A DNA stretch of 64,000 nt from a virus: UHGV virus genome UHGV-0042229; one strand, given 5' to 3'. A model generated the notes under the pieces. It saw only the letters and a program-made list of their open reading frames with translations, made no database searches and was not told the DNA's origin. The translations under genes were made by a program, and so were the position numbers. Of this stretch, positions 1,366 through 52,466 are shown piece after piece (the stretch's first letter is position 1; each line of letters begins with the position of its first letter).

Positions 1366-1575
1366 ATGGCTTTCATTCAACCAACCATCGACGACGTTAG
1401 ACATTGCTCTAACGCTTTATCTGTAGACCCTGCCGAAACCGACGCTGCCCGCGCCATTGCTGAACACTACTCAAAGATATCCAATCAGGAGTACCGCATC
1501 ACCCAAGACGACCTGGATGACCTCACTGACACAATCGAATATCTCATGGCAACTAACCAGTTAGACTCACAATAA
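1366..1575 (+). CDS. coi: C1 inactivator Coi (69 aa)
   Basis: 69-aa ORF directly upstream of c1, same strand, size and position as P1 coi; operator-like sites upstream. Confidence 0.85.
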   Translation: MAFIQPTIDDVRHCSNALSVDPAETDAARAIAEHYSKISNQEYRITQDDLDDLTDTIEYLMATNQLDSQ

Positions 1576-1685: not shown

Positions 1686-2537
1686 ATGATAAATTATGTC
1701 TACGGCGAACAACTGTACCAGGAGTTCGTCAGCTTCAGGGATCTCTTTCTAAAAAAAGCTGTTGCACGCGCCCAACACGTTGATACAGCCAGCGACGGTC
1801 GTCCTGTACGCCCGGTTGTCGTTCTACCGTTCAAAGAAACTGACAGCATTCAGGCTGAAATTGATAAATGGACTTTAATGGCGCGGGAACTGGAACAGTA
1901 CCCAGACCTCAATATCCCAAAGACTATTTTATATCCAGTGCCTAACATCCTTCGCGGTGTGCGTAAGGTTACAACTTATCAGACAGAGGCTGTGAACAGC
2001 GTCAACATGACCGCTGGCCGCATTATTCATCTGATTGATAAGGACATTCGCATCCAAAAAAGCGCGGGGATCAATGAGCACAGTGCGAAATACATAGAGA
2101 ACCTGGAAGCAACAAAAGAGCTAATGAAGCAGTACCCGGAGGATGAAAAATTCCGTATGCGCGTACACGGCTTTAGCGAAACAATGCTGCGCGTCCACTA
2201 CATTTCCAGTAGCCCTAACTACAATGATGGTAAATCAGTTAGTTACCATGTGCCACTGTGTGGCGTGTTTATCTGCGATGAAACTCTCCGTGATGGAATT
2301 ATCATCAACGGTGAATTCGAAAAAGCAAAATTTAGCCTTTATGACTCTATAGATCCGATCATCTGCGACCGCTGGCCGCAGGCAAAAATATATCGCCTGG
2401 CAGATATTGAAAATGTAAAAAAACAAATTGCCATCACTCGCGAAGAGAAAAAGGTCAAATCAGCCGCATCAGTTACGCGCAGCCGTAAAACCAAGAAGGG
2501 GCAGCCAGTAAACGACAACCCCGAAAGCGCGCAATAA
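1686..2537 (+). CDS. c1: C1 repressor of lysis (283 aa)
   Basis: 283-aa ORF starting MINYVYGEQLYQEFVSFRDLFLKKAVARAQHV..., recognised as P1 C1; cognate 17-bp operators recur across the window. Confidence 0.92.
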   Translation: MINYVYGEQLYQEFVSFRDLFLKKAVARAQHVDTASDGRPVRPVVVLPFKETDSIQAEIDKWTLMARELEQYPDLNIPKTILYPVPNILRGVRKVTTYQTEAVNSVNMTAGRIIHLIDKDIRIQKSAGINEHSAKYIENLEATKELMKQYPEDEKFRMRVHGFSETMLRVHYISSSPNYNDGKSVSYHVPLCGVFICDETLRDGIIINGEFEKAKFSLYDSIDPIICDRWPQAKIYRLADIENVKKQIAITREEKKVKSAASVTRSRKTKKGQPVNDNPESAQ

Positions 2538-2569
2538 ATTATGCCCGGCATCAACCGGGCATTCTTCCA

Positions 2570-3685
2570 TTATTCAGCCGCCACCGGTTTTAACAAGCCA
2601 GCATCGAGCAGTTTACGCGTCAACCACTGCTGGCCTTTACCCGTTAATTGAGGCGTCAACCGTATCTGGTAGCCATCTTCATCATCCAGCACCACTTCTT
2701 TCACCGTGAAATACCCCGCGTTGATGTACTGCTGGAACGGCACATTTTTACGTCCACCGGACGCTATCAGGATGCCGTTCTCCCGTAACCAGACAAACAG
2801 CGCGTTTTGCTTAAGTCCAACAACCTTTGCAAAATTCCCAATCAGGATCCCTTTAGCTACTGATACCCGGTCGGCAAAATCGACTTTAGGAGCGGCGGCC
2901 ACCAGCTGCTGATTTAGCTGGTGGGCTTTCTGTTCCAGAAGCTGCTTTTGTTCAGCCAGTTCGGCAGCCAGGCGCAGAGCTTCTGGAAGCGTCTGGGGGA
3001 TTGCAACCGGTTGCTGTTCTTTTTGCCGGAAGTAGCTGTCTTCCAGTTTTTCAAAGAATGCCCATGCCTGATCGGTTTCGAGCATTTTAGCGTGGCGGGC
3101 TGCGCCGCGTTCCGTCCAGAGGATGAGTGAGCGGGCTTTAGGAGAGATAGGATTTTGTGAGTTACTTAAAGTCACCCGCAAATTGTTCAAATCATCTCCA
3201 ATAACTTTATAGAAATGCTTACCTTCACAAAAACGTTCAGCATTACGGGAAAAGTTCTTCTTGATGTTATCCGCATCTGTCCCATACCCCTTAGCAAGGA
3301 TCTTAGTTGTCACTACACGCACTCCCTGCCACTCTAGAACGGGAATTTCATCCGGCTGACTTTGAACAACCACCAGTTCTGATTCCTGAACTAAAGGTGT
3401 ATTAATTTTTTCAGATTTAACGTTAGTAGCTTTCATTCTGTGTGCCTCCTTGCGTGTTTCGGCTGCGACGGTTGCGTAATTCAGATGCCCCTGTTCGAGC
3501 AGGTATTCACGGATATCAGACAGCAGGATACGGTGAACAGCGTTCTTGTCCTTTCTCCGGTAAAGTTGTTTGGTGATCATGAAGTAGTTGGCAATAACGC
3601 CAGGTATATCCCTGGTACTGATACAGGCAGTGTGCTGTTCAATTGCCTCGATCATCTCTTCACGGGTAACTAACGATGTTCTCAT
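2570..3685 (-). CDS. Antirepressor-like protein (371 aa), second ant copy
   Basis: N-terminal ~90 aa and C-terminal ~130 aa (PQTLPEALRLAAELAEQK...GNFAKVVGLKQNALF...QIRLTPQLTGKGQQWLTRKLLDAGLLKPVA) closely resemble the immI Ant at 50874-51917; central domain differs. ATGA overlap with upstream icd-like ORF. Confidence 0.75.
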   Translation of the reverse strand: MRTSLVTREEMIEAIEQHTACISTRDIPGVIANYFMITKQLYRRKDKNAVHRILLSDIREYLLEQGHLNYATVAAETRKEAHRMKATNVKSEKINTPLVQESELVVVQSQPDEIPVLEWQGVRVVTTKILAKGYGTDADNIKKNFSRNAERFCEGKHFYKVIGDDLNNLRVTLSNSQNPISPKARSLILWTERGAARHAKMLETDQAWAFFEKLEDSYFRQKEQQPVAIPQTLPEALRLAAELAEQKQLLEQKAHQLNQQLVAAAPKVDFADRVSVAKGILIGNFAKVVGLKQNALFVWLRENGILIASGGRKNVPFQQYINAGYFTVKEVVLDDEDGYQIRLTPQLTGKGQQWLTRKLLDAGLLKPVAAE

Positions 3686-3903
3686 AGTCCCTCCTGAGCA
3701 GAAGCGTTAACAGGGAGGCACCAGTAACTGAGAGAATTGCGTGAATCAGTGGAAAAACGGGCAGAGAAAATACATGGGGCGTCAGGAAGCTGAGAGCGGG
3801 CCTCATCTTCTGTCGGTGCAATAACGAAGTGATAGTGACGTTTTTGGCAGGAGTAAAAGCGCCAGATAAATTCAGGATGAGTTGGGGTAGGGATAGTAGC
3901 CAT
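3682..3903 (-). CDS. Icd-like protein (73 aa), second copy
   Basis: From ATG at 3903 with AGGAGG RBS: MATIPTPTHPEFIWRFYSCQKRHYHFVIAPTEDEARSQLPDAPCIFSARFSTDSRNSLSYW..., highly similar to the 73-aa icd at 51914-52135. The track ORF 3682-4131 is an in-frame upstream extension. Confidence 0.6.
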   Translation of the reverse strand: MATIPTPTHPEFIWRFYSCQKRHYHFVIAPTEDEARSQLPDAPCIFSARFSTDSRNSLSYWCLPVNASAQEGL

Positions 3904-3959
3904 ATTGGCAGCCTCCTTAGACGTTGGTATGTAACCACCGCAGAAGAGACCAATCTTGC

Positions 3960-4050
3960 TGGCGGTGGACTGTACGGAGTTGGCCTTACTGGCGTCCAAG
4001 GTAACCAGCCTACCCGAAGGTAGCCCCATACAGCCCACCATTGTAGAGGT
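3960..4050 (-). ncRNA. Putative c4-like antisense RNA of the second immunity module (approximate bounds)
   Basis: Segment aaccagcctacccgaaggtagccccatacagcccaccattgta parallels the presumed c4 region aaccagcaggccgaagcctccccatcacgccccaccataattt upstream of icd at 52226-52270; flanking loop sequence differs. Confidence 0.3.
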
Positions 4051-4063
4051 GTGCGTGTACGCC

Positions 4064-4097
4064 GATACAAAAAAAAGACGCGAGCGGCGTCTGTATC
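4064..4097 (-). terminator. Rho-independent terminator downstream of pacB
   Basis: On the minus strand: stem gacgccgctcgcgtc followed by T8 (A-run 4069-4076 on plus), with outer gataca/tgtatc pairing. Confidence 0.6.
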
Positions 4098-4222
4098 GCC
4101 TTAGACTTAAGCGGGAGGCCAATCCCGGCACCCGTTTTAATGAGGTGCCTGATAAGCATAAACCGAAAATGCCTCAAGGCGCAAGAGGTCAGGTTCAATG
4201 TAACATCGGCAGTCAAAAAACA

Positions 4223-4239
4223 CAATTTATTAGAGCAAG
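4223..4239 (-). promoter_or_regulatory. C1 operator-like site just downstream of pacB stop
   Basis: caatttattagagcaag, 15/17 to reverse-complement consensus. Confidence 0.55.
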
Positions 4240-4242
4240 ATT

Positions 4243-5727
4243 TTACTCATTAAGCCATGCCAGAGCTTCATCAACCTGCGCTTCGTCTTCGACGCTAAGC
4301 ACTTCATCCTGGGGAACATAATCCGCCAGCATAGCGAAACAATATGTATCCCAATGGTCTGGTGAGTGCAGGTTGAGTTTTTTCTTCATATCCTCCTTAC
4401 TCATCACCTTCCATTGACCTGCGGAGTTAATCCCTACAGGGATTTTCGACGCTTCCTCAATAGTTTCATTACCCTTATCCAGTCTCATACGACCAGATTT
4501 TACGGCCTCTGCGGCTTGAACGTTGGCATAAGCACGTTTATCAAAGTACAGGCTCTTATCTTCACGGCTATGCATCTTTTTACCCCAGCGTATACGCTGT
4601 ACGGTAATACCATAATACTCGTACATCAGATCCGCCGTTGCTTTACCCAGGCCATCGCCGTCTATCGCTATGGTGATATTTGGGAATCGCTCAGGATTAC
4701 ATTCTGCGAAAATTTTGGCGGCAAGCTGCGTTTCTGTAACGTCTGTGTATTCCAGCATTCGATAGTTGATTACACGGCGTTTATTTCGCTGGCCGGACAC
4801 CATCATGATATTGATAACGGACTTATCCCGTCCCGTACCACCAGCAACGTCCACACATGCAAGCCAGCCCCATCCTTTTGCAATCTTGACTTTCCGCCGC
4901 GTTGCACGTTCAACCTCATCACGTCCAAGAAGGAAGCCATCCTGTGATTTAGGGAATAGGCCGCGTACCTTAATCATGTACATAGGGTTATCGCGCCCGC
5001 CGTACTCCGCCAGCTTCATTTTGATAAATGCTGGCGTTACCAGCGGTGATTCCTCACTGTTAAGCGTGATCGCCGTATAAACGCCATCAGGGTTACCAGG
5101 ACGCTTGGCCAGTTTATGGTGTGTATCGTAGAAATAGCCGCTTGGGCGTGTAGGCTGTGACAGCAATAAGATGCGGTTATCCTGTCCGGTAAGAGCACCG
5201 GTGATGATACCGAAAGCTCTATCACTGACACCGGAGGCTTCATCGATAATATACAGAAGATGATCTGCGTGTTCACCGGCGAGAGCTTCTTCACTTCCCA
5301 GACGAAAGCCCTTCGGTACTACAGTCCATACACCTTTACCAGTAACCTCATAGAAAGCGGTTTCTGTCAGAACAAAATAATCAGCAAGCCATGGAAAACG
5401 GCTGGTGGCAGTAGCCCAGTTTATCTTGATGTACTTGAATATACCGGTCATTACCTGCTGAATTTTGTTCGCAACGATAATGGCTCGGGCACCGGGATAC
5501 ATGATTATGAACAACATGATCATGATAGAAGTCATGTCTGATTTCCCGGTACCGTGGCCAGACGAAACAGATGTCTTGCTACCCTGTTCCTGCACAGACT
5601 CAATAATCAGATCCTGCTGCCAGGTAGGTGTTTTGCCGAACAAAACATCAGCGGCCGCAATCCAGTCATAACGATATAGCGCCACCAGCTCGCGCCAACG
5701 TGGATCCGTTACGCAACTTCTGGCCAT
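4243..5727 (-). CDS. pacB: Terminase large subunit PacB (494 aa)
   Basis: 494-aa ORF immediately downstream of and overlapping pacA; size and position as P1 pacB. Confidence 0.9.
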
Positions 5728-6920
5728 TAATCATCATCCCCGTATAGCTTGCGGGTAACTTCTTCGTCTTCCTCCTCGTCTTCGTCCAGGTCTTGTTCCA
5801 GCCATGGTTCGTTTGATACACCTTCAGTATCAACATCTCCATAACCGCCTGTATCAACGATATCGGCGATTTCTTCCCTACGCTGCTCAATCCACAATGC
5901 GGCATCGGCGCGGCGGTTGGCGGCCCGTTCTCGCGCAACTTTGTCCAGATCTTCAAGAGAAGGGCCACCGACGGCTGTTTGCCTTTCCTCATCATCGGTA
6001 TTGGTCTTCGGAGCACGCAGATCGGCTTTGATTTGCTCCAGCATCAGGGGCGGCACTTTCCCGCCATGCGCCTCGATGAATTCAGCTGCTTCCAGCACTG
6101 ACCAGTTATTTTCACGCTTTCGTTCGTATGCCAGCTTAACAATGCCAGCTTGCCCCATAGACAAAGCGTGCTTTTCCGCCTCCCGGCTTTCTTTTCGATA
6201 GTTATTCCGGATGCTGTAAATGGTGTTGATCAGGCTGCTTATCTGCGCGGAACAGCTGTTTAGCATGCTCGCGATACGATATTCAGGCGGAGTCCCTTCA
6301 TCATCGTCTTTTTGCTGATCGCGCATTTCCTGCACCAGACGAATACACGTATCCCTGGCATTCTCCAGCATAAGGAGATGAGAAAGAGACTTTTCCAGAA
6401 GAGTGGTTTCCAGAACATCGGCCCCGGACCGACGCAACATAGCGCGCGCGGCCTTCCGCGCTTCAACGTTATCTATCAGGTAATCGCCAGCTTCGAATTC
6501 AAAGCGTTCACCATCATCATCCAGGGTGTCGCGTTCCAGGCGATCACGTAAGGTCCGGTGGGCGCGGGTGATCACGTCATGATCATCAGAACGATCATTT
6601 ATGCGCTTATTTTGGCGCTTCGCATTCTCGACTGCGGCACTGACAACGGCATTAACCCTTTGTTTTTCCGCTATTTCAGCCGCAATGTGATCACCTGCAT
6701 GTTGATCATTAGAGTGATCAATGATCATGCTTTTTAGTGGCTTCCTGACTGGCTTATTTGGCTTGCGGCTGTCCGCTGTCCTGGTGTCTTCTTTGAAGGC
6801 ACGGAGATAACGACGTGCAGTATTAGGGTTAAGATTAAACTCGGCGGCATACTGTGCGATGGTGTAACCACCATCTCGCGCCAGGCGAGCAAAATTCTTC
6901 TTGTGATCGTCCCAGGTCAC
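5727..6920 (-). CDS. pacA: Terminase small subunit / pac-recognition protein PacA (397 aa, GTG start)
   Basis: 397-aa ORF with acidic C-terminus; contains the pac hexamer clusters near its 5' end; AAGGAAG RBS upstream of GTG. Confidence 0.9.
6569..6727. other. pac: pac packaging site (Dam-methylatable TGATCA/G hexamer clusters) inside pacA
   Basis: Four TGATCA at 6688-6693, 6703-6708, 6715-6720, 6722-6727; opposite cluster TGATCA 6569-6574, TGATCA 6580-6585, CGATCA 6592-6597. Matches the 4+3 hexamer architecture of P1 pac. Confidence 0.7.
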
Positions 6921-31542: not shown

Positions 31543-34500
31543 ATACCCAAAACGTCATGAGCTACACCTCGAGTGTCCCCCTTACAAGACACAGAACGTC
31601 TGGCAAAAAGAGGTTCCACTCTGAAGCCACTGTCATGATAAAGCTCTCTGATGTTTGGCGCGCCACTGTTAGTAATGAGAACCTTTGCACCTCGACGATG
31701 AGCATCCGTCAACAGAGACACCAGGCGTTTTTGCTCTTCAAACTTAAAGTCATGACCGGAATAGTTCGTGAATCCCTCTGTATTTGGAAGCGGTTCATAC
31801 GGCGGATCGCAAAAGATGACATCTCCTTCTCCGGCAGCTTCAATCACCGCTGCAAAATCACCGCATACAAACTCAGACCGCCCTTCCGCACCGAGGAAGG
31901 CTTCCATCTCCTGTAATGGGAAATACGGAGTTTTATACTTCCCATAACCGACATTGAACTCACCGGCCTGGTTGTAGCGCGTCAATCCGTTAAAACAATG
32001 TCGGTTCAGGAACAAAAACGCCGCTGCGCGATGTAAATCATCATAGACTTGTTTGTTAAACGCATTCCGTACTGCCAAGTATCCCTCCTGGGTGTTGTAG
32101 TCCAGGAAAAAACGATGTGCCAGAGTGATAAGTGAATGCTCCTCGCGTTGCAGAGTCTTGTAAAAGTTAATCAGGTCAGCATTCACATCATTTAGCAGAT
32201 TTTCCTGGTATCCGGCATTCATGAAGACAGCTCCGCCACCGACGAAAGGTTCAATCAGGCGCTTCCCTTCTGGCAAATAGCGAAAGATTTGTTCCAGAAC
32301 ACCAAATTTTCCACCGGCCCATTTGAATATGGACCGTTCGAATTCTGCCGCTGGTTTAACTTTTCGCTCTTTTGTTTCACTTCCTTCTTTCTGCCGACAT
32401 ACGGCCTTAGTAATCCGATCGCCAATCCAGCGCATTACTGGTATTGCCATACTATTGCCGATCGCTTTGTAACGCGGTCCGTCAGCTGCAAGCATTGCGG
32501 CCTCTTCTTCGCTTAAATCTGGATAGTGATTGTGCAGATATGCCAGTTCATCTGAATTAACTTTTTTACGCTTTTCCGTAGGGATCAACGTATGCCAATC
32601 AGGAAAACCTTGCAGCCTTTCACATTCGACAGGGGTAAGACGGCGCATTCTACCGTCGCCGAGCAATACAATTGGTGCTTCATGGTTACATGTCAAAGTT
32701 GGTGCCGAATTATCGGTTTTTATCTCAGCCCCTCCTTGCCCATGTGCCATGGCAATTATGTTTGTATCATCGCAAGTTCTGATAGCGATGTTTGAAGTAT
32801 ATCTGGTAGTTTCCTTCCCCTCGCCTCTGCTCGGCGCAATATTCCGGCGCACGCCTTCGAACTCAAAAAGTACCGTTGCGGGATCGAGGTCTGTTCGAGC
32901 ACTTGCGACAACAAACACGCGTCGGCGTCGTTGTGCCACTCCGAAGTATTGGGCATCAAGGATTCTCCAGGCCACTTTTCGCTGCGGTCCATAAATACAA
33001 CCACACTGCGGCCACTTTGGAGCATGGCAACCGGTTTTGACATCCCACCGCCAGAATGCGTTACTTTTTCCTGATTCAGGTCGATCACCTGGTTCGAATG
33101 GCGCATCTTCTCCAGCCAATCCGGCAAGGAAACATCCGAAGGCGTTATCTGCCGATGACAAGACTCCTGGGACATTTTCCCAGACGATAACGGCTGGTTT
33201 GAGAAATGACTCAGCCCGTTTGTCGTCAATTGCATTTGCAAGCTCCACATACTTTAAAGTTAGCGCGCCACGCTCATCATCAAGCCCACCACGTAATCCA
33301 GCGATACTGAATGCCTGACAGTTATGGACCACCGCACCATTGAGGATATAGGAATGATCACCTTCGACTTCTATGTTGTATACAGTATCTAGGCCTACCG
33401 ATTTAAACTCTTTGACTGTTCGTAAAAGCATTCCATGAGCCAATCTTGATTTACGTGACAATTTCTGCGGGCAGATTGTTACCTGATAATAATTCCGTTG
33501 ATTTACCACGCGATCCTCAATCACTTTTTTGGGCTTAACTTCAATAAAGCTGACCGAAGAAACATAACCACAAGTCTGTGACAACTCCGCAACGCCCCAA
33601 GCAAGCGCAGGACTAACACTATTAATTCTAAATCCCGCTTTACCACTTGGTGTCCCATCAGTATCAAGATAGCCTTGTAAAAACACATGACGCAATGGAT
33701 GCGACATAACCCATGCAGGGATACGCTTAGCATGGCTTAACTCGCCAAAATGTTCATTAAGCCAATTGGCATAACACGTATCATTCAAGGTTACTTTGAT
33801 GCTCCCTCGGATTTCGCTTGCCACGGAAAATATGTTTTCTGGTATGCGGCAATGAAACTTTCTCAATTTCTGGCAATTTATGCCAAAAACAACCGCCTTC
33901 TTAGATTTACCTCTCCATCTCCTAATATATCCATCGCCAACATAAGCGCCCGCAAGATACATAGCCTGTTCTTCAGACAAGAACCGAGAACAAATATCTG
34001 GAGATGCAATATTGAAATTAGTTAGAGCACACCATTGATATCCCGGCATATCACATGCTGCTCGCCATTCCGGTTCAGACAACAACTCTCTCTTAAAATA
34101 TGTGCCATTTTTCCGGGTGTTTTGGGCTTTCCACCGAACCGCCAGGAAGGGATGGTCATTGGTTGTTCTTATACCTAAAGGCTGCCCAACGGCATTAAGT
34201 AACCCCGTATTAGCTATTTTTGAACCAACTCTTTTTACTTGTTGTAACCGCCCGAGATGACTGACTACGTAATCGCCAGGGCAAACATCTTCTATTGGTT
34301 TATAACCATTTTTACAAAGAACCATATGCCCCGCGGTAAAACATGGTGTCCCTCCCACCAGCACATCAGGGGCTTCAATTTCTCCAGCCTGGACTTTTTG
34401 GGCGAGTTTTGTCATGTCGCCAAGGTTGGCGACATGGGGCCAGTGGTACGCAAGAACGGCAGATGGAAAAGGCTCGATTTCAGCAAACCACGCCGGACGC

Positions 34501-48401: not shown

Positions 48402-48557
48402 TTACCTTTCAGATTCGTAGGCTGTGAAGACAGTGACCTCCGTCTGGCCGGTTCGGATTCGTACCTCGCAGAGGTCTTTCCTCGTTACCAGTGCCGTCAC
48501 AATGACGGTTAAACAGATGACGATCAGAGCGATTAACATCGCTTTTTGCTGCTTCAT
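48402..48557 (-). CDS. Hok/Gef-family type I toxin (51 aa)
   Basis: MKQQKAMLIALIVICLTVIVTALVTRKDLCEVRIRTGQTEVTVFTAYESER, near-identical in pattern to E. coli Gef (MKQHKAMIVALIVICITAVVAALVTRKDLCEVHIRTGQTEVAVFTAYESE). Confidence 0.75.
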   Translation of the reverse strand: MKQQKAMLIALIVICLTVIVTALVTRKDLCEVRIRTGQTEVTVFTAYESER

Positions 48558-48615
48558 AGCCTGCTTCTCCTTGACCTTTTGGTCGGTAAGAGGCTAATCT
48601 ACGTATGCTAAGCAT
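48409..48615 (-). CDS. mok-like overlapping reading frame (68 aa)
   Basis: Track ORF in a different frame covering almost all of the hok-like gene, as mok does in hok/sok loci. Confidence 0.4.
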   Translation of the reverse strand: MLSIRRLASYRPKGQGEAGYEAAKSDVNRSDRHLFNRHCDGTGNEERPLRGTNPNRPDGGHCLHSLRI

Positions 48616-48738
48616 AGATATGGCCTCAGATTAATGTTAAGCGTCTTGCAGGACGCGTAATGTTATCTGGGGCTTTCTTCTATCTGCTTTTCGGGTAATG
48701 CCTGAAGCAGATAGCCTCAAGCACCCGCAACGATTGTA

Positions 48739-49909: not shown

Positions 49910-50710
49910 TTAGCGCGTTGCCGCGACAGGTACCAGCACACCAGTATCAAGCAATCGCTTCATCAGCCACTGCTGACCTTTGCCGGTTATACGAGTCGTG
50001 AAAGAAATCCTGCTTCCATTGCTTGTATCGATCACGGTTTCTTTAAGGGTGAAATACCCACGGGATATGTATTCTTGTTTGGGGACGTTCCTGCGTTCAC
50101 CGGTTGCGATCAGAATTCCGTTATCACGCAACCAGGTGAAGAGATAGTTTTGGCCCAGACCGAGCACTTTGGCATAGTTGCCGATTAGAACCCCGCTGGC
50201 GGTAGCAACGCGTTCGGCGAATTCGACTTTAGGTGCATCCATAAGCATTTTTTGTTCCAGCCGTTGCTTTTGCTCTGCCAGGTCGGCAGCCAAACGGAGA
50301 GCTTCAGGGAGACTCTGCGGAATAGCAGGTTGTAATCTTCCGGCTCGATAGTCGATAAATGTCTGGTTTACCTTCAGCCGAAACGCGGGAGAAATCCAAC
50401 CAGCGTACTCCACTGCGAGCAATTCATGGGCAAAAGTGCCGCCGCCACGGCCTTCGAACGAAACTATGCAATTCTGCATAGTTTCTTTTTCAAGCTCTTC
50501 GATGAGCTGTTTAGCTGACAGCGTTCTTAGCCATTGAGCTGGCGCTTTATGGGCACCGAGTCCGCTCGCTCTGTGTAGAGCATTAAGGTTGTAACGGCCA
50601 GCGCGGTCGGTCGTAATTTCAACACCACAAATAACGGGCAGAGTGGTTGAAGGATCGACATTTTGATGAAGGTTTGATATATTCATATCCGCATTGAATG
50701 TTTGTTGCAT
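49910..50710 (-). CDS. kilA: KilA (266 aa): KilA-N domain plus Ant-like C-terminal domain
   Basis: N-terminal KilA-N pattern; C-terminal PQSLPEALRLAADLAEQKQRLE...GNYAKVLGLGQNYLFTWLRDNGIL... related to the Ant C-termini. Confidence 0.85.
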   Translation of the reverse strand: MQQTFNADMNISNLHQNVDPSTTLPVICGVEITTDRAGRYNLNALHRASGLGAHKAPAQWLRTLSAKQLIEELEKETMQNCIVSFEGRGGGTFAHELLAVEYAGWISPAFRLKVNQTFIDYRAGRLQPAIPQSLPEALRLAADLAEQKQRLEQKMLMDAPKVEFAERVATASGVLIGNYAKVLGLGQNYLFTWLRDNGILIATGERRNVPKQEYISRGYFTLKETVIDTSNGSRISFTTRITGKGQQWLMKRLLDTGVLVPVAATR

Positions 50711-50873: not shown

Positions 50874-51917
50874 TTAACCTATTGCTACTGGTTTTAACAA
50901 ACCAGCATCAAGTAGCTTGCGAGTTAACCACTGCTGGCCTTTACCCGTTAATTGGGGCGTCAGCCGTATCTGGTAGCCATTTTCATCATCCAGCACCACT
51001 TCTTTCACCGTGAAATACCCGGCGTTAATGTACTGCTGGCGCGGTACGTTTTTGCGCGCACCAAAAGCCATGAGAATGCCGTTCTGGCGCAACCATGAGA
51101 AAAGGGCGTTTTGCTTAAGTCCAACGACCTTTGCAAAGTTCCCGATCAGGATTCCATTAGCCGCTGATACCCGGTCGGCAAAATCGACTTTAGGGGCTGC
51201 GGCCACCAGCTGTTGTTCCAACTGCATTTTCTGTTCTGCCAACTCGGCAGCCAGGCGTAGAGCGTCTGGTAATGTTTGGGGGATCGATGGGGCAGGGGAG
51301 TTTGCCTGCTGCAATTCTTCCAGTTTGTCGATCAGCGAACGGCGGACTGCTTTTGACTCGCGCGCGGCGACTCGCAGGGCTTGTTTGTAGGTCATGGTTA
51401 TGACAACCATAGGCGTACCGCCACCTGGCGGCACGGTTGCACTTTTTGTGTAACCGTCCTCACCTTCTAATTCGTCGAGTATTTTTTTGATGAATTTGTT
51501 GTTCCGAACCTCTGGTTCCCCACATAACTTACGCGCTTCATTGACCATCTTTAACAGCGTCTGGCTGTCGATTGTGTCTCCAGTGTTGGAGATAACATTC
51601 ACAGCTGGTGATGGCGTAGCTGAAGCAACAGATGCTGGTTTTTTAACATTCAAATTATTACTGGTCATTCTATGTGCCTCCTTTCTCATTTCTGCTGCCA
51701 CCGTTGCGTAACGTAGACGTCCTTGTTCAATCAAATAATCCCTGATCTCGGCTATCAGTAGCCTGTTGATCACAGCCTTATCTGTTCGGGTATAAAAACG
51801 TCTGGTTATCATGAAATAGTTGGCAATTGCGCCGGGGATCTCCCGTGTCGGCATACAGGCAGTATGCAGTGCGATCGCTTCGGCTATGTCATTACGGGTG
51901 ACGAGAGGTTTTTTCAT
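50874..51917 (-). CDS. ant: Antirepressor Ant (347 aa) of immI
   Basis: ATGA overlap with icd; C-terminal Ant domain; order c4-icd-ant-kilA-repL as in P1. Confidence 0.8.
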   Translation of the reverse strand: MKKPLVTRNDIAEAIALHTACMPTREIPGAIANYFMITRRFYTRTDKAVINRLLIAEIRDYLIEQGRLRYATVAAEMRKEAHRMTSNNLNVKKPASVASATPSPAVNVISNTGDTIDSQTLLKMVNEARKLCGEPEVRNNKFIKKILDELEGEDGYTKSATVPPGGGTPMVVITMTYKQALRVAARESKAVRRSLIDKLEELQQANSPAPSIPQTLPDALRLAAELAEQKMQLEQQLVAAAPKVDFADRVSAANGILIGNFAKVVGLKQNALFSWLRQNGILMAFGARKNVPRQQYINAGYFTVKEVVLDDENGYQIRLTPQLTGKGQQWLTRKLLDAGLLKPVAIG

Positions 51918-52135
51918 AAAACCCCCTGAACGTCGGAAGAGAAGGGGAGGTTCCAGTAACTAAGTGAATTGCGCGAGTTAGTTGAAAAACGGGCAGTAAA
52001 AATGCAGGGGCCATCAGGCAATTGAGAGCGTGCTTCGTCTTCTGTTGCTGCGATGACGAAGTGATAGTGGTGTTTTTTGCAGGAATAGAAACGCCAGATG
52101 AATTCTTGGCGTGCGCAAGGATTGGCATTAACCAT
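51914..52135 (-). CDS. icd: Icd (73 aa)
   Basis: MVNANPCARQEFIWRFYSCKKHHYHFVIAATEDEARSQLPDGPCIFTARFSTNSRNSLSYWNLPFSSDVQGVL; 73 codons, coupled to ant. Confidence 0.8.
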   Translation of the reverse strand: MVNANPCARQEFIWRFYSCKKHHYHFVIAATEDEARSQLPDGPCIFTARFSTNSRNSLSYWNLPFSSDVQGVL

Positions 52136-52194
52136 AGTTACGGCCTCACAATCAGGTTTAACAACCTGCTACCCGCTGCTAAACAGGTGGCAGG

Positions 52195-52300
52195 ACGTGA
52201 CGGGGTTAGCAGACTGGCGATTGTGAAACCAGCAGGCCGAAGCCTCCCCATCACGCCCCACCATAATTTGGGCGTAACGCAGTTTTACGGACACAAAAAT
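52195..52300 (-). ncRNA. c4: Putative c4 antisense RNA region (approximate bounds)
   Basis: Between operator and icd; direct repeats gctgctaaac at 52175-52184 and 52344-52353 (candidate targets) flank a segment whose transcript carries the complementary ctgctaac (plus strand gttagcag, 52205-52212). Exact ends not determined. Confidence 0.4.
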
Positions 52301-52449
52301 ACCGCAATATCGGATATCTGCGGCTGTCCGCACAATCATTCAGGCTGCTAAACCCGGTCGCAGAATTTGCTACGACGGCGAAACTATAAGCCTGAACGAT
52401 TAAAAGGTCAATATGATGCAAAAAGATAGCATTCGCGACTTAAAAATAC

Positions 52450-52466
52450 AAATTTATTAGAGCAGA
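52450..52466 (-). promoter_or_regulatory. C1 operator-like site (Op51-like) upstream of immI
   Basis: aaatttattagagcaga, 15/17 to reverse-complement consensus. Confidence 0.6.

Follow-up and report, generated by a model that had tools for sequence, protein, structure and literature searches.

A second immI-type operon, with its own C4 antisense RNA gene and an IsrK-type leader, between c1 and pacB of a P1-like phage-plasmid

Introduction

The immI operons of phages P1 and P7 are antirepressor operons controlled by the C4 antisense RNA, and consist, in order, of the operator Oc4/Op51, the promoters P51a/b, the leader sites a1-b1, c4, the target sites a2-b2, icd and ant1/ant2. P1 and P7 are annotated as heteroimmune, a property that is ascribed to small differences in immI (PMC6906374). 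Here we describe a second operon of this kind, additional to the canonical one and placed between the repressor gene c1 and the packaging gene pacB, in the viral genome UHGV-0042229, a P1-like phage-plasmid (Punavirus) of which a stretch of 64,000 nucleotides (nt), called the window below, was analysed.

A similar arrangement has been studied experimentally in Salmonella, where the antirepressor gene anrP of the lambdoid prophage Gifsy-1 is preceded by isrK and by an open reading frame (ORF) named 'orf45'. Some transcription passes the isrK terminator and continues into the antirepressor gene, giving an mRNA that is translationally silent, and translation of the antirepressor rises about 140-fold when short IsrK is provided in trans; the central part of IsrK base-pairs with the 3' portion of 'orf45', where the nucleotides are conserved and the amino acids are not (Hershko-Shalev et al. 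2016, PMC4825925). The region is treated there as a 45-codon ORF, with no mention of C4, and the downstream effect reported is on the antiterminator AntQ (PMC4825925). Gifsy antirepressors are reported to inactivate lysogenic repressors (PMC4825925).

Phage D6 (MF356679) carries an icd-like gene (orf83) followed by a putative anti-repressor gene (orf82), and comparable cassettes are present in Stx-converting and other lambdoid phages, such as TL-2011c and PhiR12_3. Further afield, in N15 (CB RNA and its antirepressor) and P4 (CI RNA), a small processed leader RNA likewise controls the genes of an antirepressor operon and sets immunity specificity; these RNAs belong to other families and act mainly by transcription termination.

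Results

A complete second operon between c1 and pacB

The second operon comprises a C1 operator, two promoter-like sites, an IsrK-type leader with an intrinsic terminator, C4, an icd-like gene and ant, in that order. An earlier note on this DNA had proposed a second c4/icd/ant module inserted between c1 and pacB; every feature that it described is present, its core reading is supported, and chance as the source of these features is excluded. The operon and the landmarks that place it are as follows.

1686-2537, plus strand: c1, repressor gene, flanking the second module
2541-4239, minus strand: second immI-type operon, complete
4243-5727, minus strand: pacB, packaging gene, flanking the second module
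50874-52466: canonical immI, at its usual map position next to kilA (49910-50710)

The canonical immI of the window is of P7 type, being 98.8% identical to P7 over 851 nt, with P1 covering 72% of the query. It has the familiar location between the sim/lipoprotein genes and kilA-repL, whereas the second module does not. Only 24 bp separate the stop codons of c1 and pacB in reference P1 (NC_005856), and the alignments of P1, P7, SJ46 and phiW39 are confined to the flanks, in two pieces that make up 64% of the query. The module is therefore an insertion, there being no more than these 24 bp between c1 and pacB in P1 and P7, and the synteny comparison bears out the note on this point: P1 does not carry the same genes here. 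Recent intragenomic duplication of the canonical immI was considered as a source and is ruled out; the leaders and C4 RNAs are of different types and the centres of the Ant proteins are unrelated.

Operator and promoters

4223-4239, minus strand: C1 operator-like site CTTGCTCTAATAAATTG, with 15 of 17 matches to the P1 operator consensus ATTGCTCTAATAAATTT
4197-4225, minus strand: putative C1-controlled promoter (TTGTGT, 17 nt, TACATT), positional counterpart of P1 P2c4 (formerly P51a)
4155-4184, minus strand: putative constitutive leader promoter (TTGCGC, 18 nt, TATGCT)

Sites resembling the C1 operator with three mismatches or fewer number 14 in the window, against 0.34 expected by chance, and include the canonical immI operator at 52450-52466. 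The module operator shares the orientation and relative position of that canonical site, begins 2 nt after the pacB stop codon, and is kept in all 11 P1-like copies examined; it is absent from D6. The -35 hexamer TTGTGT overlaps the end of the operator exactly as is annotated for P1 P2c4 (TTGTAT, 17 nt, TATCTT), so that the module has, as judged from these motifs, a promoter overlapped by a C1 operator in the layout of P1 Oc4/P2c4. The -10 hexamer TATGCT of the second putative promoter stops 7 nt short of where the Rfam isrK model begins to match, and D6 has TTGCGC and TATATT at the equivalent place.

Leader RNA, C4 and target sites

4071-4148, minus strand: IsrK-type leader RNA; Rfam isrK (RF01394), 60.8 bits against a gathering score of 50, E=1.5e-10, full length (1-77)
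4116-4122, minus strand: leader site a1, TTGGCCT, complementary to a' of the adjacent C4
4099-4106, minus strand: leader site b1, GTCTAAGG, complementary to b' of the adjacent C4
4069-4092, minus strand: intrinsic terminator from a terminator scan, at the 3' end of the leader RNA; stem 4076-4092, 6 bp, G+C-rich, followed by T8
3958-4045, minus strand: C4 antisense RNA gene; Rfam C4 (RF01695), 75.9 bits against a gathering score of 45, E=5e-13, full length
3994-4001, minus strand: C4 site b', CCTTGGAC, in the second hairpin loop
3980-3986, minus strand: C4 site a', AGGCCAA, in the single-stranded stretch after the b' hairpin
3947-3953, minus strand: target site a2, TTGGTCT, complementary to a'
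3915-3922, minus strand: target site b2, GTCTAAGG, overlapping the icd Shine-Dalgarno sequence AAGGAGG (3912-3918)

The C4 gene named in the earlier note is confirmed by this Rfam match, which scores above that of the canonical C4 (52183-52268, 69.6 bits), and its fold has the architecture of P1 C4, with a' and b' at the same positions. These two sites pair at 7+8 positions with both sets of targets, a1/b1 in the leader and a2/b2 downstream, the latter set including one G-U pair. In the predicted minimum-energy fold of the read-through leader, a1:a' and b1:b' are paired in cis (z=-3.6), a pairing that corresponds to helix b-I of the Gifsy-1 paper and resembles its structure A (PMC4825925).

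The terminator calls for a different reading from that of the earlier note, which gave it as 4064-4097 and took it to separate the module from pacB. It is part of the sequence matched by the isrK model, some 130 nt into the module and downstream of the module's own operator, promoter-like sites and a1/b1, and is really the 3' end of the module's own leader RNA. Transcription coming from pacB would meet this terminator too. That the module is an independent unit, as the note had concluded, is still argued for by its own operator, promoter-like sites and C4, and not by the terminator.

In the canonical P7-type leader, a hairpin followed by a U-run (CCGCA...TGCGG TATTTTTGTG) lies at 52292-52323 on the minus strand, between b1 and c4. 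It is also present in P1, where the record leaves it unannotated, and is analogous to the IsrK terminator.

The C4 gene of the module contains an AUG (4041) that is in frame with icd, with no intervening stop, and forms part of a 149-amino acid (aa) ORF (3682-4131, minus strand). For types C and D (defined below), PGAP calls a separate 39-aa 'ash family protein' ORF over the C4 region. Neither this ORF in pE189-1 nor its equivalent in the window matched any NCBIfam model at E<=0.01, and we regard the call as a probable over-annotation of an RNA gene, like 'orf45' of Gifsy-1.

Recognition types and covariation

The recognition sites of the two operons differ. The second module has a' AGGCCAA and b' CCTTGGAC; the P7-type immI of the window has a' CTGCTAA and b' TCACAATC, and P1 has a' CTGTCAA and b' TCACTAAC. 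Cognate sets pair at 7+8 positions, the C4 of the second module pairs with the P7-type targets at 4+5, and P1 with P7 at 6+6. Because the 4+5 pairs are fewer than the 6+6 of the heteroimmune P1 and P7, we infer that the two switches of this genome are free of cross-talk. Whole-RNA energies calculated with RNAduplex for C4 against the target regions were rejected as a measure of specificity: cognate and non-cognate combinations gave alike values (-29 to -45 kcal/mol), since the calculation takes no account of folding within each RNA and lets the strands of stems pair with their surroundings. Complementarity at the sites and covariation were used in their place.

For comparison we took ten further P1-like elements, phage D6 and the homologous leaders of Gifsy-1 and two lambdoid phages. 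C4 was found in all of these loci, and isrK reached its gathering score in all but one error-prone record (10 of the 11 P1-like loci, and D6). The c1-pacB locus itself has four recognition types.

Type A: window, 673R5, p2RM9974 and an E. marmotae plasmid
Type B: RCS47 and p2RM15113; a TTGAGAC, a' GTCTCAA, b GTCAAAGG, b' CCTTTGAC
Type C: JL22, pE189-1 and pEC18-3, and also D6; a as in type B, b GCAAAAGG, b' CCTTTTGC
Type D: pVPS18EC0801-3 and a Salmonella plasmid; a TTGGAAC, a' GTTCCAA, b as in type C

Gifsy-1, PhiR12_3 and TL-2011c add three more, giving seven recognition types in 12 related leaders (9 distinct), and each change in a' or b' is matched in a1/b1 and in a2/b2. In the 12-sequence alignment, pairing in the combined a1:a' and b1:b' helices is complete (100%), and both partners have changed in 11 of the 15 pairs; for a':a2 and b':b2 together, pairing is 97%, and both partners have changed in 10 of 15. 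None of 500 shuffles reached the covariation score, and sliding the partner by one to three columns lowered the scores from 0.75 and 0.63 to 0.15 or below. These values come from related sequences, with pairs placed by eye on the window row; chance or phylogeny is nonetheless an unlikely source of the covariation, given the slide control and the three-way consistency. The covariation thus supports functional RNA-RNA pairing, as a prediction from the alignment.

The Icd-like and Ant-like proteins

3682-3903, minus strand: icd-like gene, 73 aa; NCBIfam NF033153 (phage_ICD_like), 49.8 bits against a cutoff of 25; phrog_1426, 1e-45
2570-3685, minus strand: ant-like gene, 371 aa, intact; phrog_63 ('anti-repressor Ant'), full length, 3e-134
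2541-2562: perfect palindromic hairpin between the convergent stop codons of c1 and ant, from the terminator scan; 9-bp stem with 6 G-C pairs

The stop codon of icd and the start codon of ant overlap by 4 nt (ATGA, 3682-3685), and the hairpin beyond ant is likely, from its position and structure, to serve as a terminator for both c1 and ant. The 73-aa Icd homologue had been put at about 85% identity to its canonical counterpart; the homology holds, at the lower figure of 78% (49 of 63 residues, 86% positives, E=8e-38), the first 10 residues remaining unaligned. Each of the 12 copies examined has this ORF intact.

Overall identity between the two Ant proteins is 54% (E=1e-125), and the claim that they share their ends and differ in the centre stands with one qualification. 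Residues 1-83 are identical at 52 of 83 positions (63%) and the 141 aa from 'IPQTLP' to the C-terminus at 86.5%, while the middle regions are not significantly similar (E=0.4); both centres nevertheless match phrog_1726, and so may be forms of a single antirepressor module that have diverged strongly. The second Ant is laid out as a P1 Ant1-type N-terminus (1-83), an ORF6N centre (116-201; PF10543, 8.7e-19, 68 bits against 27.8) and an ANT/KilAC C-terminus (259-360; PF03374, 5.9e-31, 107.4 bits against a cutoff of 25.3). Pfam assigns only the ANT domain to the canonical Ant, and relaxing the Pfam thresholds brought nothing useful for its centre or for the N-terminal 83 aa of either protein. 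Both proteins match phrog_63 over the full length, the second with the higher score (449.6 against 351.3 bits). An internal Met84 codon (3436), preceded by AAGGAGG, is the same codon as the annotated start of P1 ant2, and is a putative Ant2-type internal start.

The 371-aa ORF is not frameshifted, a possibility that had been raised against it, and it is intact in 11 of 12 copies. The exception is ON470615.2 (vB_EcoM-673R5; 886-2885), in which c1 is split into three coding sequences and ant is truncated at 257 codons with many stops downstream. Its DNA is 98.4% identical to the window, and for that reason these defects look like homopolymer or frameshift errors of the record and not like real pseudogenes. 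Truncated ant genes in pEC18-3 and p2RM9974, which were apparent from the PLSDB tables, proved on direct translation to be intact 371-aa ORFs, the PLSDB gene tables being incomplete.

Across plasmids the N- and C-terminal parts of the second Ant are nearly invariant, and the ORF6N centre exists in at least four alleles that do not track the C4 type. The variable segment corresponds to window positions 3058-3340 (about residues 116-210), its alleles being divergent in otherwise near-identical proteins. This independent shuffling of ORF6N alleles suggests recombination or diversifying selection acting on the domain. The C-terminal domain common to both Ants also occurs in KilA (49910-50710, minus strand), which combines KilA-N with ANT/KilAC; the window thus has three KilAC-domain proteins with three N-terminal or central modules, namely KilA-N, ORF6N and one to which Pfam assigns nothing.

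Comparison with related systems

The module and P1/P7 immI are alike in element order and logic. Common to both are a C1 operator over the upstream promoter, a second promoter (both promoters being putative in the module), an a1/b1 leader, a hairpin with a U-run, C4, a2/b2 sites with b2 at the icd ribosome-binding site, the icd/ant overlap and Met84, in the module a candidate nested start. The module differs in lying at c1-pacB in place of sim-kilA, in being additional to the canonical operon, in a leader that is scored as isrK and not as c4-a1b1, in its unrelated recognition sequences and in the ORF6N centre of its Ant.

On the minus strand of Gifsy-1 (NC_010392), a C4 match (34214-34131, 69 bits) lies immediately beyond isrK (34316-34240) and begins with the ATG of the published 'orf45'. 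A match to Rfam c4-a1b1 (48.1 bits) overlaps the isrK region (in the stretch 34131-34329), and since both models match overlapping sequence there, isrK and c4-a1b1 describe related elements. As in the module, a full-length isrK with an intrinsic terminator, which in Gifsy-1 is leaky, precedes a C4 homologue and an antirepressor, and a1/a'/a2 and b1/b'/b2 are complementary in the same layout. Gifsy-1 differs in having no icd, the antirepressor following the C4 region directly, in having no C1 operator, and in being a lambdoid prophage. From its sequence, therefore, Gifsy-1 IsrK resembles an a1/b1 leader belonging to a C4 system, and 'orf45' resembles a gene for a C4 RNA. The published activation in trans and the pairing of IsrK with 'orf45' fit an a1/b1 leader acting as a C4 decoy.

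D6 has a leader and C4 nearly identical to those of type C, followed by an icd homologue; it differs in lacking the P1 C1 operator and promoter upstream, in its neighbours (ref, pmgF and simB), and in its Rha/Roi-like antirepressor, which is unrelated over most of its length to the second Ant. D6 also has two icd-containing loci, at 3044-4465 and 20795-21177. The lambdoid cassettes, represented by about 100 phage records, are about 79% identical to the module over 275 nt of leader and C4 and share the a/b architecture, yet are of other recognition types, lack icd, are followed directly by a 215-aa Rha-family antirepressor and lie near cI. To judge from these comparisons the module is a mosaic: its operator and promoter are of P1 type and its IsrK-C4 leader is of lambdoid/D6 type, and they are joined to icd and to an Ant in which an ORF6N centre stands between P1-type ends.

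Frequency and previous annotation

The module is not rare. At least 80% of the region is present in one place in 268 of 816 matching plasmids in PLSDB, and at least 80% of the module in 264 of 5,426 complete E. coli genomes; it is carried by about one third of P1-like plasmids. Leaders of type A were found in about 104 plasmids, and leaders like B, C or D in 323, partly at other loci or in other plasmid types. The best database match of the region is pD72-mcr1 (NZ_CP035313.1, 99.7%).

The genes are already annotated in GenBank/RefSeq, among others in JL22 and pD72-mcr1. The label in RCS47 is 'ant'; those used elsewhere include 'antirepressor KilAC domain-containing protein', 'Icd-like protein' and 'ash family protein'. 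Our literature search did not take in the D6 genome paper (Gilcrease and Casjens 2018); within that scope, the only mention of a second immI in P1-like elements was one sentence on the insertion in RCS47 (Venturini 2019, PMC6906374), and no description was found of the locus's own C4, operator, IsrK-type leader or allelic recognition types. The literature searched also held no paper linking C4 with IsrK. The second module is accordingly a further member of the known C4-controlled antirepressor operons, common and annotated at the level of its genes. What appears to be undescribed is that it is complete and, by its recognition sites, orthogonal to the resident immI, that it exists as an allelic series with compensatory covariation, and that Gifsy-1 IsrK shares its architecture.

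Discussion

We consider that the second module is probably a working, orthogonal anti-immunity switch under C4 antisense control, parallel to the canonical P7-type immI. The upstream promoter, overlapped by the C1 operator, and the constitutive promoter downstream would both transcribe the a1/b1 leader, and most transcription would stop at the intrinsic terminator to give an IsrK-like small RNA. Read-through transcripts would contain C4, which would be freed by processing and whose a' and b' would pair with a2 and b2. As b2 covers the icd ribosome-binding site, icd translation would be blocked, and that of ant with it, because ant is coupled to icd through the ATGA overlap. A lysogen would in this way silence its own Ant and that of an incoming phage of the same C4 type, while an incoming or co-resident P1-like element of a different type would escape, and its Ant1/Ant2-like proteins would be expected to inactivate C1. 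The leader RNA, by pairing with C4 through a1/b1, would act as a decoy that tunes the switch. For this leader-C4 relationship Gifsy-1 offers an experimental precedent by analogy, with its leaky terminator and strong activation in trans. The module is being maintained, as seen in the intact ORFs of 11 of 12 copies and in its presence throughout the 268 plasmids and 264 E. coli genomes.

Several observations weigh against this interpretation. The generic sigma-70 scan found no minus-strand promoter within 4150-4240, and both promoters are consequently placed by position, from the P1 P2c4/P1c4 annotation and the Rfam isrK start. Rfam c4-a1b1 (RF03163) had no match at its gathering score in 4050-4240, where isrK matches instead; the canonical leader does match it (52337-52389, 54.6 bits). 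The central third of the second Ant has no significant similarity to that of P1 Ant, and its ORF6N centre varies between plasmids while C1 is nearly invariant. Finally, P1, P7 and some two thirds of P1-like plasmids lack the module, which is therefore dispensable.

The target of the second Ant is the part of the scheme on which we are evenly divided, C1 having about the same chance of being the target as not. A mosaic centre set against an almost invariant C1 means that C1 may not be the target, or not the sole one. An RNA switch exactly as described could instead drive an Ant that acts on the repressors of co-resident prophages, or that serves as an ORF6N DNA-binding regulator, in which case the module would be a device for cross-talk or competition and not part of P1 immunity. 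This we think unlikely, though it survives best of the alternatives. It would account for an ORF6N domain that Pfam does not find in the canonical Ant and for the four or more centre alleles, unlinked to C4 type, among plasmids with near-identical C1; it would also suit the resemblance of the leader and C4 to those that precede Rha-type antirepressors in Stx-converting lambdoid phages, and the inactivation of lysogenic repressors by Gifsy antirepressors (PMC4825925). It sits less well with an Ant whose first 83 and last 141 residues are P1-Ant-like, which keeps the same putative nested Ant2 start and which outscores the canonical Ant on phrog_63, or with an operon that adjoins c1 and is placed under a C1 operator.

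Plasmid addiction of the type I toxin-antitoxin kind, with C4 as antitoxin and Icd as toxin, is a good deal more doubtful. On loss of the plasmid C4 would decay, and expression of Icd would cause filamentation; icd-like proteins are annotated as inhibitors of host cell division, Icd is the most conserved protein of the locus, and its ribosome-binding site is the one that C4 would directly occlude. The P1 annotation, however, calls the inhibition of division by Icd reversible and says that icd is 'apparently required for expression of ant', wording that suggests a role in coupling; a match to a sok-type RNA is already present in the window, and a full-length, conserved ant would be left unexplained. 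That the module is an inert recombinational hitch-hiker, a mosaic remnant of no current function, is very improbable despite its mosaic origin and its dispensability (it is absent from SJ46 too), as the operator is conserved, the ORFs are intact save in the probably artefactual ON470615 with its split c1, and three-way compensatory covariation over 15 base pairs and seven types, the point that tells most against it, could not persist without selection on pairing.

If, as we favour, the second locus is an orthogonal anti-immunity switch, the compatibility of P1-like elements would be set by two RNA codes and not by one. P1-like phage-plasmids often carry resistance genes (the closest match is pD72-mcr1), and their exclusion, induction and coexistence affect the spread of those genes. 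More tentatively, and with somewhat less than an even chance of being right, P1-like phage-plasmids, including carriers of mcr-1 and of extended-spectrum beta-lactamases, might possess a two-lock combinatorial RNA immunity code made up of the canonical immI and a hypervariable locus beside c1. The canonical lock would be of P1 or P7 type, and the second would have at least four orthogonal C4 types and shuffled Ant centres; together they would decide which elements superinfect, induce or displace each other, and the locus would be a hotspot of diversifying selection that structures the population of P1-like elements. As a corollary, held at the same strength, IsrK-class small RNAs might in general be a1/b1 decoys for C4, with 'orf45' of Gifsy-1 reinterpreted as a C4 RNA gene. 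The P1 c4/a1b1 and Salmonella IsrK systems, which are treated apart in the literature searched, share one architecture, and titration of C4 by the leader offers a simpler reading of the IsrK data. The allelic series, types A-D and the three in lambdoid phages, would provide a ready natural set of orthogonal antisense-target pairs.

Other features of the window

Beyond the immediate flanks of the module, the neighbouring genes are the following.

1366-1575, plus strand: coi, on the c1 side
5727-6920, minus strand: pacA, 5' neighbour of pacB

A strong Rfam match to the sok antitoxin RNA (48552-48726, minus strand; 114.9 bits, gathering score 59) is situated on the same strand as kilA, about 1.2 kb past the 3' end of that gene, and implies an addiction module of the hok/sok type; reference P1 is not known to have such a module. 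Three tRNA genes, at 29203-29275, 30710-30782 and 30788-30860 on the minus strand (64.7-74.5 bits), are as expected for P1-like genomes.

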